Shown piece after piece: positions 36,001 through 48,000 of a DNA stretch of 64,000 nucleotides. The stretch is from an uncultured Verrucomicrobiota bacterium. GTDB taxonomy: Bacteria; Verrucomicrobiota; Kiritimatiellia; JAAZAB01. A program made the position numbers. The DNA lies in NCBI GenBank assembly GCA_964475165.1, contig CAYYVN010000001.1, forward strand, positions 31,518 through 95,517, read 5' to 3'. The stretch's first letter is position 1; every line of letters starts with the position of its first letter.

Positions 36001-39000
36001 GATGATCCGCAGGTTGCCCAGCAGCTTCCGTTCATCAATCAGGTAATATGGCGTTGCGAGCCGTGACATGGAGGGCCTCTCCCGTGTAATTCCGGCGGCG
36101 CATTTTCGCCACCCCTGCGCAGGATGATAGAAAGTGCATCGGGAAAAGCAAGCCTAACCCCGAGAAAATAATTCCGCGCGCGCCCGGCAGGACTCGAAAC
36201 TGCAACCTTCTGATCCGAAGTCAGAAGCTCTGTCCAATTGAGCTACGGGCGCCGCTGCGATTTTCAATCGTCCGGCCCAGGCGCGCTGCGCCGCTGTTTC
36301 TTTTGCGCTTGGTGATGCTTATCCGCCAGGCGCTGGGCCTCTTGGCGATGTGAGGGGCGGCGTTTCTGGCGGCGACAGCGGGCCACTGCTTGCTGGCGTT
36401 CGATCCGGGCGCCCAGCTGGTATGTTTCCAGCCGCTCGCATAATCTCCGCCGGGCCAGGAAACGATTCAGTTCACGCGAACGGCTCTGCCCGCATTTGAC
36501 CATGATGCCGGAAGCGGCATGCTGCAAGCGCACGCAGGAGGAGGTTTTATTGAGCTTCTGGCCGCCGCGGCCCGCGCCCCGAATGAAGGTTTCTGCTAAA
36601 TCAGCTTCGCGGATGCCCAGCGCTTGCATACGCGCCCGCAAGGCGGCTTGTTTGGCCGCACTGACCGGCGCGGCGTTCATGGGTTCACCTGCGTCGCCAG
36701 CCACTCATAGAGGCGCCGCACGGTTTGCTCGAAGACGGGCCAGCTGTGTTTTTGGGCCGCCAACTCGGCAGCCTGCCTTGCCAGCGTCTTGCGCAGCTCA
36801 GGGTTATCCGCCAGCTGGCGCATGGCCGCGGCAAACTCCGGCGGCTTAGCCGGCGCCAGCATGGCCACGGTGGAGTTCAAAACTTGAGTATGCGTGGGTA
36901 AATCGGTGGCCAGAATCGGCACGCCTGATTGCAGGTAGGAATAGATCTTCATGGGCGTGTTGAGTCCCTGAATGCGCGGCGATACCAACACATCGGCCTG
37001 ATGCAGCAGGCTGGTCAGCATGGCTACCGGCCGCGGGCCGGTGAAACGCACATATTGATCCACCCCCAGGCGCGTGGCCAGCGCCTGGTAGCGGGCTATA
37101 TCCGGCGGCGTCCCGCCAATGATAGCCAGGGTGGCGTTATTGCGCTCGCGGTGCAGGCAGGCGAAACTGCGCAGCAACAGGTCAATGCCCTGATATGATT
37201 CCAAGTTGCCCACATACATAAAACGGGTGCCGGCCAGGCGTAAGTTCTCGGCTGCCAGCGGAGCCGTGGTTGACGCACTGGCCGTAAGCGGCACATCCGG
37301 CAGCAGCCAAACATTGCTGGCCCGATGCGCGCGCGCAATGGCTGCCAGGGCCTCGCAGACCGGCACCACCGCCAGTGCCCGGCGGGTGATCAGACCTTCC
37401 AGGCGTTGGAGCCAGGGCGCCCACAGACGAAAGAGAAAATGTTTATCCAGCATTTGCTGAGAGAGACAGGAGTCCATATCGTAGACATAGGGGATCCGCA
37501 TTTTTTTGTTGATCAAAAGAGCGATGAAAGCCGCTTCCTCCACGGCATGTATCAGGTCATAGGTTTGGCGGCGACACATGCGCCAGGCGCGGACGCCCAA
37601 AAGGATATCACAGATCAATTTTTTGAACGAAAAGCCGGGCCGGATATTGCTTAATCCGGGCAGGCGTGGGATGCGTTGGATGTTCACGCCGGGCAGGCTG
37701 ATATCCTGGCCCTCGTGATAGGTGAGCACATCCACGCGATCGCCGCGGGCGGACAAGGCTTGCAGCAGCAGGCGGATGGCGATGGGTGTGCCGCGTTCCT
37801 GATAGAAAGGTTGCGGGGCCAGTAATAAAATATTCATTCTAAGCCAGATAATTTTTATGCCCGCTCAGCAGCGAGCCGCTCAGGGATTTTATGGTTCCGG
37901 ATTACGTTCATGCGTGCCCAACCAGCGGCGCAGTTTGCCGTAACCGACGAAGTGATCCGCCAGAAAGGTGAGCATATATTGCAGCGGCACGCCGCCGACG
38001 GTTTGACGATAGAGCCGGTCGCACTTACGGCATAAAGGCAGAGATTCAACAGCGTGGGCCAGGCGGCGGCGCAGGTCCCGGTAAGCCGGGCCATTCCAGA
38101 TTTCCCGCAGGGTGTTTTCCTGCACATTGCCCAGGGCCAGATGGGCGAAGAAATCCTGAGGACAAGGCGTCACCGTGCCGTCATGGCAAATGACCATGGC
38201 ATACCAGGGGAAGGTACAGGGGGTTGCGCTGCGCGTGCCGGCCGGCTGAGGGGCATCAGTGGCCGCCCAGATATATTCCTCCTTTTCGATGATCTCATCC
38301 ACGCCGGCCGCCAGAAATTGGCGCCGCAACTCGGCTGCGGCGGCGCCTTCATGAGCTGGTTGCTTGAAGCGGATTTTTTCAACGACGATATAGGGCAGTT
38401 GCTGTTGGCGTTCCCGGCGCAGCTTGGCCAGGCGCATGATGTTGGCCACGGTCTGTTCAAAGTTGGCCCCGACGCGGATGCGCTCATAGGTTTCTTTGCT
38501 GAAACCATCCACCGAAAAAGAGAGCAGATGCGGTTGGGCATCCAGCAGTTCGCGCGCGCGCTGTTCATTGAGCAAGCTGCCATTGGTATGCAGGCGCGTT
38601 TTGAGTCCCGCCGCTCGAGCATAAGCGATCATCTCGGGGAGCCTGGGGTTCAAGAGGGGCTCGCCGCGATGATGCAGATAGATATCATTGGCGAAATGGC
38701 GGGCTTCATCAATGATCTTCTGAAAGAGCTCCAGGCGCATGAGGCCCTTGCGCGGGGCGGGGAAATCCTTATTGGGGCACATGCTGCAGCGCAGATTGCA
38801 AACGCTGGCGCTTTCGATCCACAGCCGGATGGGCAGGCTGCGCACCCGTTCGTGGCGCCTCCGAAAATCCCATAAAATCGAGGCCATTCGCCCCAGCATG
38901 ACCGGCATCAGCATCATAATCCTCCGTTGCTTTTCCCAGGCACGACTGCTATGTTACTTCAAAGGCTAGTCAACGGAAATAAAAATATGGGACTTTCTAT

Positions 39001-45000: not shown

Positions 45001-48000
45001 CCGGCGCCGGCCGCGCAGATGATCATGAGCCAAGCCTTCCTCAAAATCGTTGGCGATGGGCATGTGCATCTCCACCCCCATTTCCACTTGAAGCTGGCTT
45101 TCGATTGCCTGGTTGCTAACCTGAGCCAGCAGGCCCAGGTCGCCTGGCCCGGCGCCGCGGCGGCACCCTGGCAGCTGGTGTTTCTGGCTGAACGCCGGGG
45201 CGATAATTTTTTCGAGCGGCTCAAGGCAGGCCGCATCGATCCGGCGGCGGCCGGCTTGGAAATCCTCAGCGCCGATGAGGGGGGCAGCCTGCTCTTACGT
45301 CACCATACCGGCGGCCGGCTGTGCTTGGTCGCCGGTCGCCAGATCATCACTCGGGAACGCCTGGAGATTCTGGGGCTGGTCCTGCGGGAGGAGCTCCCGG
45401 ATCTTTTATCGGCCCAGGAGGTGCTGGAGCGTATCAGGCAAGCGGGTGGTGTGCCTGTTCTGCCTTGGGCGCCCGGCAAGTGGTGGGGAGCGCGCGGCCG
45501 GCTCATTCGGCAGCTCATCCTGGCCAAGCGCCGCGGCGAGCTGGCTCTGGGCGATTCGGCCTTGCGGCCGCGGCTCTGGCCTGAGCCGATCGGCATGCGT
45601 CAGGCGCGGGCGCGCGGGCTGACCATTTTGCCCGGATCCGACCCTCTGCCCCTGGCGGGCGAGGAGCGGCGGATGGGAGCTTATGGATTCGTGTATGAGG
45701 GACCTTTTGATCTGGAACAGCCGGCGCGCGCGGCCCGCGCCTTGGTCGCCGAGCAGGCCGCGTGCCTCAGGCCTGCTGGCCGACGCAATAATACGGCGCT
45801 CATGCTCCAGCGCCTGTATCGCCTGCGTCTGGCCAAAAGCGCCGGGCAGATAACCTAGTTGCGCGGTGGCCTGCAGGGAGCCTGAACAATGCCATCACCC
45901 GTGGGACATAGCCTGATTGGTTTGGCTTTAAGCTTGGCCTGGCGTCTGCCGCGCTGGTTGGATTGGCCGGGATTAGGCCGGGCCATCTGGCAGCAGCGCG
46001 GCTGGATCCTGCTGGGGATCGTCCTGGCCAATGCGCCGGATATTGATTATTTCTTTGGGATCTTCCGTGGTAACCTCAATTTCTATCATCAGACGGGGAC
46101 GCATACCATCATCTGGGTGGGATTGGTTTCCCTGGCAGTCTGGATTTTAGTTCGCCGGCGCGAAGGTTCCGGGCTGGGATTCATCTGGCTTCTGGTTTTA
46201 ACGAGCAGTCATTTATTAGCCGATTATTTCTGCTTGGATACAGCGCCGCCGCGGGGCTTGCCGCTTTTCTGGCCACTCGCCGGGAGCCATTGGACTTCGC
46301 CCATCTCAATTTTTCCGGCACCAGCCAAGGCCACCTGGGCGGAACTATGGACCTGGCATAATCTGGGCGTGGTGGCTGTGGAGCTCCTGCTGACTCTGCC
46401 CCTGGTGGCTGCCGTCCTGGCCTGGAAAAGAAAGCGGCGCGTCTCCCCACGTTTGCATACGCTGGGTTGATATCAGCCCTTCCCCATTCCGCATGTTCGC
46501 CCGTTGGCTTCCTGCATGCGCCGTCGTCAGCTCATGTATTGGATATTGAGATACGCCGCTATTGTCTTGCGCCTGCGACCTTCATCTGATTCTTGTTCAG
46601 GCCATGGTTGCATGCACGATCAAGCGCCCCAGCAAGACGGCGCCGATACCCAAGACATAGTTGCCAACAGCATTCAGAGCGGCAAGCAAGAGCTGACGAT
46701 CGTTGAATAGTGCAAGCGTCTCGTAGCCCAATGCGGAAAACGTTGTGAATGAGCCCAAAAAGCCGATGACAATTAGCCATTGAGCGCTGGGGCCCAAAAC
46801 CCCTTTGTCATTGATCAGTCCCATGACAGCCCCCATGGCGCAGCAGCCGAGGATGTTGACGGCAAGGGTGCCTATTGGAAAAGCGCTGGTAATCCACCGG
46901 TGGGCGAGATCTGCTATGAGGAAGCGGGCTAGAGCACCGCAACAACCGCCCAGACCAATCAACAGTAATTTAGGCATGATGCCCTCCTTTCAGAGGAGTC
47001 ATCAGCCTTTGCAGGCGGTTACCGGCAGACCCCATTGCCTGTTGATATATAAAAAGTATGGTAGAGCCGATCGCTCCTGTCAAGAGCCCACTGGGTCAGC
47101 CCTCTATTTATAACGGAAGGGGCCGCTTGGCGCGGCGCCTGAGCTGGCCTTCATGCACAGCCGGCTTGGGATAAGGGCCCATCTTGGCTTGCATCGTCAG
47201 AGGCTTCCTGGCAAGTGTCCCCGCGTGGGAGCGTCAATGTTCACAGACATTAGCGCCAGACTGCAAGGTGCCGGCGAGCCAGGCGCGGGCAATCTCGGCT
47301 GGGTCCTCGCCGGATGCGCCCACCACGACCTGGATGCCGTTTTCGGCGAAGAGGTTTTGGGCGCGTGTGCCCATGCCGCCGGCGATGATGAGCTGGGCCC
47401 CCTGTTGCTGCAGCCAGCGTGGTAGCACTCCCGGTTCGTGCGGCGGGGGCACCAGCACTTGTTGGCTGGTGATAGTCTTGGTTTTTTGATCCACCTCCAC
47501 CAGGGCGAACTGCTGGCAGTGGCCGAAGTGCATGCAGAGCTTGCCATCCGTTAGCGGGATTGCGATTTTCATGGGTGTCTCCTCCTTGGGATTCTCTGTG
47601 GTTGCCGTTTGCGGCTCTGGTTGATCCAGGGCCAAGAGCGGTGCAATGATGGCTTGCAGGGCTTGAGCGGTCTGGCTCTGAGGGTGCTGCCGCACGAAGG
47701 GCATGCCCGCATCACAGGCCGCGCCGAGCGCTGGATCGAGCGGGATGCGTCCCAGAAAGGGCACACCCATTTCCTGCGCCATTTGGGCGCCGCCCCCGCT
47801 CTGGAAGATATCGGTTATGGTCTGGCATTGCGGGCAGACGAAGCCGCTCATGTTTTCGACCACGCCCAGGATGGGCACCTGCAGCTGCCGGCAGAAATTG
47901 ATGGATTTACGCGCATCGTTGGTGGCCACGGCCTGGGGCGTGGTGACGATGATGGCCCCGCTGAGATCGTTGGCGATCTGGCATACCGAGAGGGGTTCAT

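Follow-up and report, generated by a model that had tools for sequence, protein, structure and literature searches.

Within the 64,000-nt stretch analysed here (hereafter the window; from an uncultured bacterium of Lentisphaerae/Kiritimatiellae type, assembly GCA_964475165.1, contig CAYYVN010000001.1, 31,518-95,517 of the forward strand), positions 36677-46470 hold seven neighbouring genes encoding a GT4 glycosyltransferase, two different radical S-adenosylmethionine (SAM) enzymes, a GT-C membrane glycosyltransferase, a CE4 polysaccharide de-N-acetylase, a PHP-fold protein and a YdjM/DUF457 membrane protein (Table 1). This region probably belongs to a system, specific to the PVC group (Lentisphaerae, Kiritimatiellia and Verrucomicrobiota), that assembles and modifies a glycan of the cell envelope. 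Genes were called from an open reading frame (ORF) listing and from hidden Markov model (HMM) scans against Pfam and NCBIfam, and all gene coordinates are given as window positions; both sources recovered the seven ORFs of a preliminary description of this DNA, with their coordinates and domains. That description saw here a glycan-related locus, and the domains, the linkage and the nearest relatives of the genes bear it out. Its view of the radical SAM enzymes as non-housekeeping, of the genes as linked and of one product as PHP-like also stands, the last at the level of the fold, whereas crosslinking by a SPASM enzyme and an action on peptides, including peptides made on ribosomes and modified after translation (RiPPs), had to be abandoned.

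The core that recurs across related loci is a GT-C of the polyprenyl-phosphate-sugar type paired with a CE4 de-N-acetylase. The GT-C of the window, of PMT/PMT_2 type (GT39/GT83-like), matches Pfam PMT (PF02366; 45.8 bits, cut-off 22.7) and PMT_2 (34.2 bits, cut-off 26.1), has its membrane domain in residues 12-406, with about 10 hydrophobic segments, and presents after its first transmembrane segment an acidic loop-1 motif, H42-P43-D44-E45 (HPDE), that is nearly invariant in 21 sequences; a profile search of the Protein Data Bank (PDB) gave an STT3 chain as sole match (E 3e-6). The soluble extension that follows, put at about 600 aa and periplasmic in the preliminary description, measures about 700 aa (residues ~415-1128). 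Its structure prediction, proposed there as a check, was made with AlphaFold2 (AF2) on residues 415-1128 (pLDDT 89, pTM 0.91) and displays an alpha/beta piece, three carbohydrate-binding-like beta-sandwiches and two helical or TPR-like stretches, the nearest structures being carbohydrate-binding modules (CBMs) and AftD- and AglB-like modules. Judging from this model, the extension looks like a non-catalytic, acceptor-binding scaffold, as in AftD, Emb and C. youngae ORF12, and not like a fused second enzyme.

The CE4 protein matches Pfam Polysacc_deac_1 (53.4 bits, cut-off 23.1) and the PgaB N-terminal domain (64 bits), and its nearest solved structures are those of PplD (6dq3, E 1.4e-13) and PgaB/BpsB. 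Since it bears a transmembrane segment at residues 4-28 and nine orthologues carry lipoboxes, its catalytic domain is predicted to be extracytoplasmic, with de-N-acetylation taking place in the periplasm. An ArnD-like role as a cytoplasmic deformylase was ruled out, the enzyme being periplasmic and matching no ArnD model. The window copy reads TFNDG (N99) where 28 of 28 orthologues have T[FL]DDG. A second, independent assembly of this species (L054, 1593-2591), with four other substitutions, has this Asn too, so TFNDG is not an assembly error. The window copy also has SYPGG where orthologues have CYPxG, and HAHPH where they have HSHxH, the His-His metal motif thus being present. By its sequence, this copy may be inactive or work differently.

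To follow these genes in other genomes, 45 loci encoding GT-C relatives were fetched, others were added by means of both radical SAM proteins, and all were searched for homologues of the window genes; the counts below cover the 40 PVC-group loci with a GT-C match (27-54% identity), and single loci are cited by L numbers. A CE4 orthologue occurs in 25 of the 40, at most 1.5 kb from the GT-C gene in 24. The first of the radical SAM enzymes, called twitch-type below, is encoded in 12 loci, the GT4 in 10; in the clade with 37-54% identity, their genes without exception form a pair that lies upstream of the GT-C gene and is divergent from it. The divergent arrangement of this radical SAM gene and the GT-C gene is retained in 12 loci, with gaps of 120-543 nt. 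The second radical SAM enzyme, which has a B12-binding domain (B12-type below), appears in three. The set of five genes, GT4 and twitch-type enzyme divergent from GT-C, CE4 and B12-type enzyme, was found again in two other species (L026 and L049), with the B12-type gene inverted; the GT-Cs of these loci are 42% identical to that of the window and 66% to each other.

Smaller combinations also occur. GT4 orthologues (52-65% identity) adjoin the twitch-type gene in L001, L004-L006, L009, L011, L026, L036, L049 and L050, and the two genes form a stand-alone pair in L050 and in L051, where a short-chain dehydrogenase/reductase (SDR) lies beside them. L050 and the GT-C/CE4 locus L018 are contigs of one metagenome-assembled genome (MAG). 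The B12-type gene adjoins CE4 in L026 and L049, is 5.5 kb from GT-C in L007 and is coupled to GT4 in L052, while PHP-fold homologues adjoin GT4 in L033 and L045 and lie upstream of it in L052. This last locus, of Desulfonatronum type, encodes homologues of the GT4 (48%), the B12-type enzyme (65%), the PHP-fold protein P279 (36%) and YdjM (35%), the GT4 gene being translationally coupled to the B12-type gene; it also encodes two membrane proteins like c62, the second GT-C-like protein of the window (one of them beside a HAD-UbiA fusion), GtrA/GT2 pairs, a DegT protein and a hexapeptide acetyltransferase. The set of B12-type enzyme, hexapeptide protein, SDR, methyltransferase, c62-like protein, carbamoyltransferase and GDSL protein is seen again in L053. 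An HpnA-like SDR (58-67% identity) recurs beside GT-C, beside the pair of radical SAM enzyme and GT4, and in L052 and L053. L054 has the same gene order as the window, YdjM included, and L030 carries a Wzt-type ABC transporter.

As sub-clusters recur in diverged genomes, the clustering is beyond chance; the linkage supposed in the preliminary description thus holds in homologous genomes, as seen in the 40 GT-C loci, L026, L049 and L052. It is graded, with GT-C and CE4 on one side and GT4 and the twitch-type enzyme on the other forming tight pairs, and the B12-type enzyme, the PHP-fold protein and YdjM being looser associates; for YdjM, the evidence of linkage is weaker than for the other cluster genes. 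Near-identical proteins are encoded in MAGs named 'Lentisphaerae bacterium', and the named GT-C homologues all belong to Lentisphaerae, Kiritimatiellia or Verrucomicrobiota; one of 27% identity is encoded in a MAG of Victivallis vadensis (L021).

The nearest characterized relatives of both radical SAM enzymes act on sugars: BtrN for the twitch-type enzyme, AprD4 and HpnJ for the B12-type. The HMM classification places both outside housekeeping families, as had been presumed, every NCBIfam match being far below its cut-off. Although the twitch-type enzyme matches Radical_SAM and SPASM in Pfam, it reached no NCBIfam model; the best was TIGR04317 (119 bits, cut-off 380), and NF033640 N_Twi_rSAM gave 72.6 bits (cut-off 170). 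Eight cysteines are invariant over 121 sequences, C40, C44 and C47 of the CX3CX2C radical SAM motif and C234, C244, C252, C296 and C299 in the C-terminal part. Grell and co-workers are said to have defined SPASM domains in 2015 by two auxiliary [4Fe-4S] clusters and the seven-cysteine motif CX9-15GX4C ... CX2CX5CX3C ... C. This full motif is not present in the twitch-type enzyme, which has five C-terminal cysteines only and no CX5CX3C part. Among solved relatives BtrN ranks first (E 7e-14), then come DesII, anSME and BlsE; three of these four act on sugars. C234, C252, C296 and C299 align with cysteines of the BtrN twitch domain, which we take to be the auxiliary-cluster ligands described by Goldman et al. 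in 2013. The enzyme is accordingly better named twitch-type than 'SPASM', the label it had first received: it has one set of auxiliary-cluster cysteines (five invariant Cys) and is predicted to hold a single auxiliary cluster, as BtrN does. It has no N-terminal recognition domain, the radical SAM core beginning at about residue 30 of 342. A search for its homologues gave more than 120 cluster representatives with 59-77% identity, and those that bear an organism name all come from the PVC group.

The B12-type enzyme matches Pfam B12-binding (45.6 bits, cut-off 32.1) and Radical_SAM (84.4 bits, cut-off 29.5). Its best NCBIfam match is HpnJ (152.4 bits, cut-off 577.6), then BchE, and the AprD4 model gives 70.4 bits (cut-off 500); among solved structures, AprD4 (6fd2, E 1.6e-19) and QCMT (9ccb) are nearest. 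Homologues of about 464 aa with 56-77% identity are found in the PVC group and in Desulfonatronum. AprD4 has the same domain, yet binds no cobalamin (PMC12931638). Methylation, dehydration and rearrangement are all possible predicted reactions for the window enzyme, which its sequence cannot separate.

The GT4 protein matches Pfam Glyco_trans_1_4, Glycos_transf_1 and Glyco_trans_4_4, with MshA (3c4q, E 3.6e-10) and PimA as nearest solved structures, a likeness that is to be read at the level of the GT4 family only. P279 has no match in Pfam or NCBIfam, including PHP (PF02811), for which none of 34 family members gave a hit at E<=1, and a profile search of the PDB returned nothing useful. Its family is large, with 2332 cluster representatives at 50% identity, 902 of them with E<=1e-30, and is defined by invariant D13, H15, H17, D179 and D208, the first three forming a DxHxH motif. 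Foldseek on the AF2 model (pLDDT 96) returned only PHP proteins as top matches, namely PsfC (7rty), TM0559 (2anu), RNase AM and EndoQ (probability 1.0, TM-score 0.5-0.6), so that the 'PHP-like' hydrolase of the preliminary description is upheld by fold and finds no match in Pfam or NCBIfam. YdjM is recognized by Pfam with 56.9 bits and has four hydrophobic segments. GT4, both radical SAM enzymes and P279 all have no signal peptide.

The functional neighbourhood reaches upstream to a set of three genes at 27360-31319 that the preliminary description had missed. The GT-C-like protein c62 is polytopic, residues 1-393 comprising about 11 hydrophobic segments, and has a loop-1 D36-E37 invariant in six family members and a Pfam F5_F8_type_C module (residues 538-661) nearest to a chitosan-binding CBM32 (E 1e-4); homologues are present in L015, L052 (two copies) and L053, and its comparison by hhalign with the 1128-aa PMT-like GT-C was not significant. 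The UbiA-family protein, which has no HAD domain, gives PRK08238 and decaprenyl-phosphate phosphoribosyltransferase as best NCBIfam matches, all below cut-offs, and has orthologues (50-59% identity) in 8 of the 40 loci, 2-5 kb from the GT-C of about 1100 aa. The barrel U281 has a signal peptide, ends in ...LSLRYAF and has no Pfam match. Its homologues lie near GT-C in 8 of the 40 loci, at most 1.5 kb away in five (L024, L028, L032, L038 and L039).

Table 1. Genes of the cluster and of the upstream set, in window positions.
Feature	Positions	Strand	Basis
GT4 (GT-B fold) cytoplasmic glycosyltransferase, 386 aa	36677-37837	-	Pfam
Radical SAM enzyme with twitch-type (abridged SPASM) C-terminal domain, 342 aa	37889-38917	-	Pfam Radical_SAM and SPASM
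GT-C membrane glycosyltransferase (PMT/PMT_2-like), 1128 aa	38987-42373 (ORF opens at TTG 38927)	+	
CE4 (NodB-type) polysaccharide de-N-acetylase, 332 aa, N-terminal signal anchor	42400-43398	-	Pfam Polysacc_deac_1
B12-binding-domain radical SAM enzyme, 464 aa	43603-44997 (ORF opens at TTG 43429)	+	Pfam B12-binding and Radical_SAM
PHP-fold metal-dependent phosphoesterase-like protein (P279), 279 aa	45019-45858	+	Fold only
YdjM/DUF457 inner-membrane protein, 193 aa	45889-46470	+	Pfam YdjM
Second GT-C-like membrane protein (c62), 676 aa, C-terminal F5/8-type-C (CBM32-like) module	27360-29390	+	Pfam F5_F8_type_C
UbiA-family protein, polyprenyl-phosphate phosphoribosyltransferase-like, 371 aa	29387-30502	-	Pfam UbiA
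Small outer-membrane beta-barrel (U281)	30474-31319 (likely start Met 31250)	-	Signal peptide, C-terminus

From the domain identities, topology signals, cysteine complements and linkage observed, we infer the following donors, acceptors, order of steps and types of reaction. Radical SAM chemistry requires SAM and the reductant of the cytoplasm. For this reason, and because none of the four has a signal peptide, GT4, the twitch-type enzyme, the B12-type enzyme and P279 would carry out early cytoplasmic work on a sugar or a lipid-linked precursor. GT4 would glycosylate an acceptor, possibly a phosphorylated one as MshA does, and the PHP-fold enzyme would take off a phosphate. The twitch-type enzyme may abstract hydrogen from a carbinol carbon of the sugar, in a BtrN-like oxidation or an epimerization, and the B12-type enzyme may perform a C-methylation or a rearrangement like those of AprD4 or HpnJ. 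At the periplasmic face, the GT-C would add a sugar from a polyprenyl-phosphate donor, or else a short unit linked to lipid, to an envelope polysaccharide or lipoglycan, its CBM/TPR extension holding the envelope glycan acceptor during transfer, and the anchored CE4 enzyme would afterwards turn N-acetylhexosamine (HexNAc) of that glycan into a free amine. The system may cooperate with the UbiA protein, the second GT-C and the outer-membrane barrel at 27360-31319, which would form a module of pentofuranose type.

Several points weigh against such a scheme. Every chemical step is extrapolated from relatives found at E 1e-10 to 1e-19, or from the fold alone. The twitch-type enzyme scores highest with uncharacterized 'maturase' models (TIGR04317 and TIGR04311) and with no family of sugar enzymes, and the window CE4 does not have the canonical catalytic-base Asp of motif 1 (TFDD) that the orthologue family keeps. 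Neither a GT2-type polyprenyl-phosphate sugar synthase nor a recognizable flippase lies beside the GT-C of the window. Finally, the B12-type enzyme is near GT-C in only 3 of 40 loci, and GT4 with the twitch-type enzyme can occupy another contig of the same MAG (L050 as opposed to L018), so the pieces may serve more than one pathway.

This last point leads to a reading in which the pairs are merely juxtaposed in a region rich in envelope genes, GT4 with the twitch-type enzyme, GT-C with CE4, and the B12-type enzyme with P279 and YdjM each serving a different product. Besides the separate contigs of L050 and L018 and the lone pair of L051, one may invoke the many loci with GT-C and CE4 but neither GT4 nor radical SAM enzyme, the want of CE4 in L001 (over all 10 kb) and in L004 (where only 2.5 kb were available downstream of GT-C), and the FeoB, polyamine, tRNA-Arg and RF-1-domain genes interleaved between the upstream and downstream parts. 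However, five genes stay together across lineages whose GT-Cs are only 42% identical, despite the inversion of the B12-type gene, the divergent arrangement of radical SAM and GT-C genes persists in 12 loci (gaps 120-543 nt), and members of all three modules meet again in another phylum (L052), which makes mere juxtaposition improbable. The acceptor of the GT-C could also be a protein. PMT (PF02366) is the best Pfam match of the GT-C, which has the acidic loop-1 motif as well, and U281 barrels occur near GT-C in 8 loci (5 at most 1.5 kb away), several with linkers rich in Pro, Val, Ala and Thr; the enzyme might thus glycosylate Ser/Thr of secreted or outer-membrane proteins from a polyprenyl-phosphate donor, like actinobacterial Pmt, with the barrel as a possible target. 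We regard protein O-glycosylation as unlikely, given that the GT-C is most constantly accompanied by a polysaccharide de-N-acetylase of PgaB/PplD type, that its extension is CBM-like as in the glycan-acting AftD, Emb and ORF12, that the PMT score is modest (45.8 bits) with PMT_2 and STT3 matching too, and that the U281 of the window has no linker. Where the preliminary description spoke of protein or peptide glycosylation, the protein is possible without being favoured, CE4 being the strongest partner of GT-C, and the peptide is dropped. Indeed, that a SPASM-domain enzyme would crosslink a ribosomal peptide, glycosylated later, is highly improbable and was rejected: it can call upon the Pfam SPASM match and upon weak NCBIfam matches to peptide maturases such as PqqE, StsB and DynA, all far below cut-offs, but the twitch domain has five C-terminal cysteines only, with one auxiliary cluster aligned to that of BtrN, there is no N-terminal recognition domain, and a precursor gene would not fit into the gaps of 51 and 69 nt on either side. 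A search for a nearby precursor peptide, as first proposed, found no conserved small ORF, including in the largest gap of the cluster (43399-43602), where gene order differs in L026 and L049, and an identity of 59-77% over the whole superphylum is atypical of RiPP maturases.

Two further readings keep the sugar and change its carrier or its chemistry. GT4 could place HexNAc on an inositol- or polyol-phosphate or on a lipid, P279 would dephosphorylate it, the radical SAM enzymes would remodel it, for instance by an HpnJ/Cds-like ring contraction to a cyclitol, and GT-C would extend the glycolipid, once exported, to a lipoglycan resembling lipoarabinomannan (LAM), phosphatidylinositol mannosides (PIM) or glycosylphosphatidylinositol (GPI); the HpnI/HpnK/HpnJ and Cds precedents have been reviewed (PMC13459092). 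MshA and PimA are nearest to GT4, but this similarity is generic to the family; HpnJ is the best NCBIfam match of the B12-type enzyme, at a score of 152 for a cut-off of 577.6. In favour of such a glycolipid, GT4 and PHP-fold genes are adjacent in L033 and L045 and share one operon in L052, the HpnA-like SDR (58-67%) recurs beside GT-C, beside the radical SAM pair and in L052/L053, and the combination of UbiA and GT-C matches the logic of mycobacterial LAM/arabinan synthesis. On the other hand, as CE4 is periplasmic, the order glycosyltransferase, deacetylase, radical SAM enzyme of HpnI, HpnK and HpnJ was down-weighted as topologically unlikely here, and scans of the window revealed no squalene-hopene cyclase, inositol-phosphate synthase or phosphatidylinositol (PI) synthase; on balance a glycolipid head group appears doubtful. 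The other reading bears on how the sugars are made. Without need of oxygen or flavin, the twitch-type enzyme might act as a C-H oxidase or epimerase on a sugar that is lipid-linked or made by GT4, for example in place of DprE1 in turning polyprenyl-phosphate ribofuranose into another pentofuranose, and the B12-type enzyme might contribute a C-methylation or a carbocyclic rearrangement, resulting in a glycan with radical-made sugars. It fits with this idea that PVC loci have UbiA and never DprE1/E2 while the Desulfonatronum-type locus has DprE1/E2 and no twitch-type enzyme, that an HpnA-like SDR recurs beside GT-C and the pair of radical SAM enzyme and GT4, and that both radical SAM enzymes are 56-77% identical among their closest PVC homologues; we nevertheless hold it to be rather unlikely. 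If it were true, the anaerobic PVC bacteria that carry the locus would have an undescribed envelope glycan.

The favoured assembly and modification of an envelope glycan has several partial models. The three-component systems by which O antigens receive pentofuranose in the periplasm consist of a polyprenyl phosphoribose synthase of UbiA type with a fused HAD phosphoribose phosphatase, a flippase of the MATE family and a GT-C of family GT136 with a C-terminal CBM (Kelly et al. 2024, PMC11127046; PMC11194591). In what may be a likeness to these systems and to mycobacterial arabinan synthesis (DPPRS Rv3806c, DprE1/E2 and the Emb/Aft GT-Cs), the window has a UbiA beside a GT-C-like protein of about 680 aa (c62) with a C-terminal carbohydrate-binding module (27360-30502), and L052 has the full set of GtrA, GT-C, HAD-UbiA, FAD oxidase and SDR. 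In contrast, the UbiA of the window is not fused to a HAD phosphatase, no MATE flippase or DprE1/E2 was found in the window or the PVC loci examined, and the 1128-aa GT-C, CE4, GT4 and both radical SAM enzymes have no counterpart in the pentofuranose and arabinan systems described. The ArnC/ArnD/ArnT pathway for lipid A aminoarabinose similarly combines a PMT_2/ArnT-like GT-C with an enzyme of the CE4 fold for unmasking an amino sugar, and L015 has a small GT2 and a flippase beside its GT-C/CE4 pair. However, the CE4 of the locus is exported, groups with PgaB, IcaB and PplD and matches no ArnD model, the window has no GT2 synthase, and its GT-C is twice the size of ArnT, with a unique periplasmic extension.

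The closest CE4 relatives, PgaB and IcaB of poly-N-acetylglucosamine (PNAG) and PplD of the linkage unit of streptococcal rhamnopolysaccharide, are likewise anchored outside the cytoplasm and act on assembled glycan. They differ in that the partner here is a GT-C and not a GT2 synthase or a Wzx/Wzy- or ABC-type pathway, and in that the window enzyme has a C-terminal extension of about 100 aa and an Asn in place of the catalytic-base Asp. With BtrN, the 2-deoxy-scyllo-inosamine dehydrogenase of butirosin synthesis, the twitch-type enzyme shares four aligned C-terminal cysteines, a small size, a sugar context and the lack of a peptide-recognition domain, but the score is only about 55 bits, it has an extra invariant C244 and about 70 more residues, and it is encoded in an envelope locus of anaerobic PVC bacteria instead of an antibiotic cluster. 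The B12-type enzyme has the same core architecture, a Rossmann/B12-binding-like domain followed by a radical SAM domain, as AprD4 (an aminoglycoside 3'-diol dehydratase), HpnJ (which converts hopanoid glucosamine to a cyclitol ether) and class B cobalamin-dependent methyltransferases such as the glutamine C-methyltransferase QCMT; AprD4 and HpnJ act on amino-sugar conjugates, and the B12-type enzyme is below every equivalog cut-off.

Regarding gene boundaries, the 9-nt gap first reported between the divergent radical SAM and GT-C genes needs a TTG start at 38927; because GT-C homologues begin at the position of ATG 38987, a gap of 69 nt is more likely. The start of the B12-type gene is similarly placed at 43603 and not 43429, since all its homologues have about 464 aa. 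GT4 and the twitch-type gene are 51 nt apart. The CE4 gene is on the minus strand and is overlapped by a plus-strand ORF (42286-43371) with no family match. On the right, the cluster is bordered by a fluoride riboswitch (46986-47048, minus strand, 52.7 bits) directly upstream of a crcB fluoride channel gene (46597-46977, minus strand), both unrelated to the glycan genes. On the left, an RF-1-domain (ArfB-like) gene (36264-36704, minus strand) overlaps the 3' end of the GT4 gene and is probably co-transcribed with it; it keeps this position only in the three closest relatives (L001, L004 and L005), and a functional link is not evident. A promoter and terminator scan over 36-47.3 kb remained at chance level, and an Rfam scan revealed tRNAs and the fluoride riboswitch only, with no cobalamin or SAM riboswitch.

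Around the upstream set, the U281 homologues of L024 (3694-4629), L032 (12223-13152) and L038 (13277-14167) have after the signal peptide a linker of 60-90 residues rich in Pro, Val, Ala and Thr, which the window U281 does not have. Such Pro/Thr-rich linkers resemble the O-mannosylation sites of mycobacterial Pmt substrates, and those of the U281 homologues could be candidate O-glycosylation sites for a PMT-like enzyme. In L052, positions 17664-21150 encode a HAD-UbiA fusion, a DprE1-like FAD_binding_4 protein and a DprE2-like adh_short protein, following a GT-C with an F5/8-type-C module; by its domains, this is a complete gene set for a decaprenyl-phosphate arabinose-like donor of mycobacterial style, in a genome of sulfate-reducer type. 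A search of the window and of all PVC loci for homologues of DprE1 and DprE2 gave no match. Among the window ORFs scanned, none matched MATE or Polysacc_synt; two membrane ORFs (14908-16353 and 19660-21024) have no assignment.

Further upstream, an operon-like group on the minus strand (22366-26333) encodes a 168-aa membrane ORF, a NodU/CmcH-type carbamoyltransferase, a DUF5989-like mini-ORF and a GDSL/SGNH protein, and an MFS transporter gene (21029-22312) follows this set. A carbamoyltransferase-DUF5989-SxtJ-GDSL set is also present in L053, and in L042 and L043 a carbamoyltransferase with 70% identity adjoins GT-C/CE4, which suggests O-carbamoylation or O-acylation of the same glycan. About 1 kb without a convincing ORF (26334-27359) separates the carbamoyltransferase operon from c62; a 91-aa ORF in it (26593-26868, plus strand) resembles a fragment of a membrane protein and is possibly a gene remnant. 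Between the UbiA set and the GT4 set lie FeoB (31316-33040), polyamine-type genes and a tRNA-Arg (36178-36252); the polyamine-type genes (33438-36069, minus strand) are adjacent genes of saccharopine-dehydrogenase and Orn/DAP-decarboxylase type, a pattern of carboxy(nor)spermidine synthesis. Genes for Wzz, RmlC and SDR proteins occur elsewhere in the window, which also encodes RACo, NUBPL-type and ferredoxin-rich proteins that are typical of anaerobes.

We found no direct description of this cluster in the literature. Its components all belong to known superfamilies and its logic, in which a lipid-linked donor is combined with a periplasmic GT-C and with a deacetylase outside the cytoplasm, has precedents, whereas the specific families are uncharacterized and the presence of two conserved radical SAM enzymes in an envelope-glycan locus is uncommon. 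To our knowledge, the glycans that Kiritimatiellia, Lentisphaerae and anaerobic Verrucomicrobiota have in their envelopes are almost unexplored, and radical SAM chemistry is nearly unheard of in the assembly of envelope polysaccharides or lipopolysaccharide (LPS), the cases known to us concerning lipid head groups (HpnJ and Cds). The locus brings together five uncharacterized families, namely the GT-C of about 1100 aa, its CE4 partner, the twitch-type enzyme, the 464-aa B12-type enzyme and the PHP-fold family; the first four show conservation over the PVC group, outside which the B12-type and PHP-fold families also occur. To solve even one of the five would provide an annotation for thousands of metagenomic proteins. 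The practical value is mainly in such annotation and in new enzymes for glycoengineering, and no concept is overturned; the system could, however, show by what route modified sugars arise in strict anaerobes when no step depends on oxygen or flavin.

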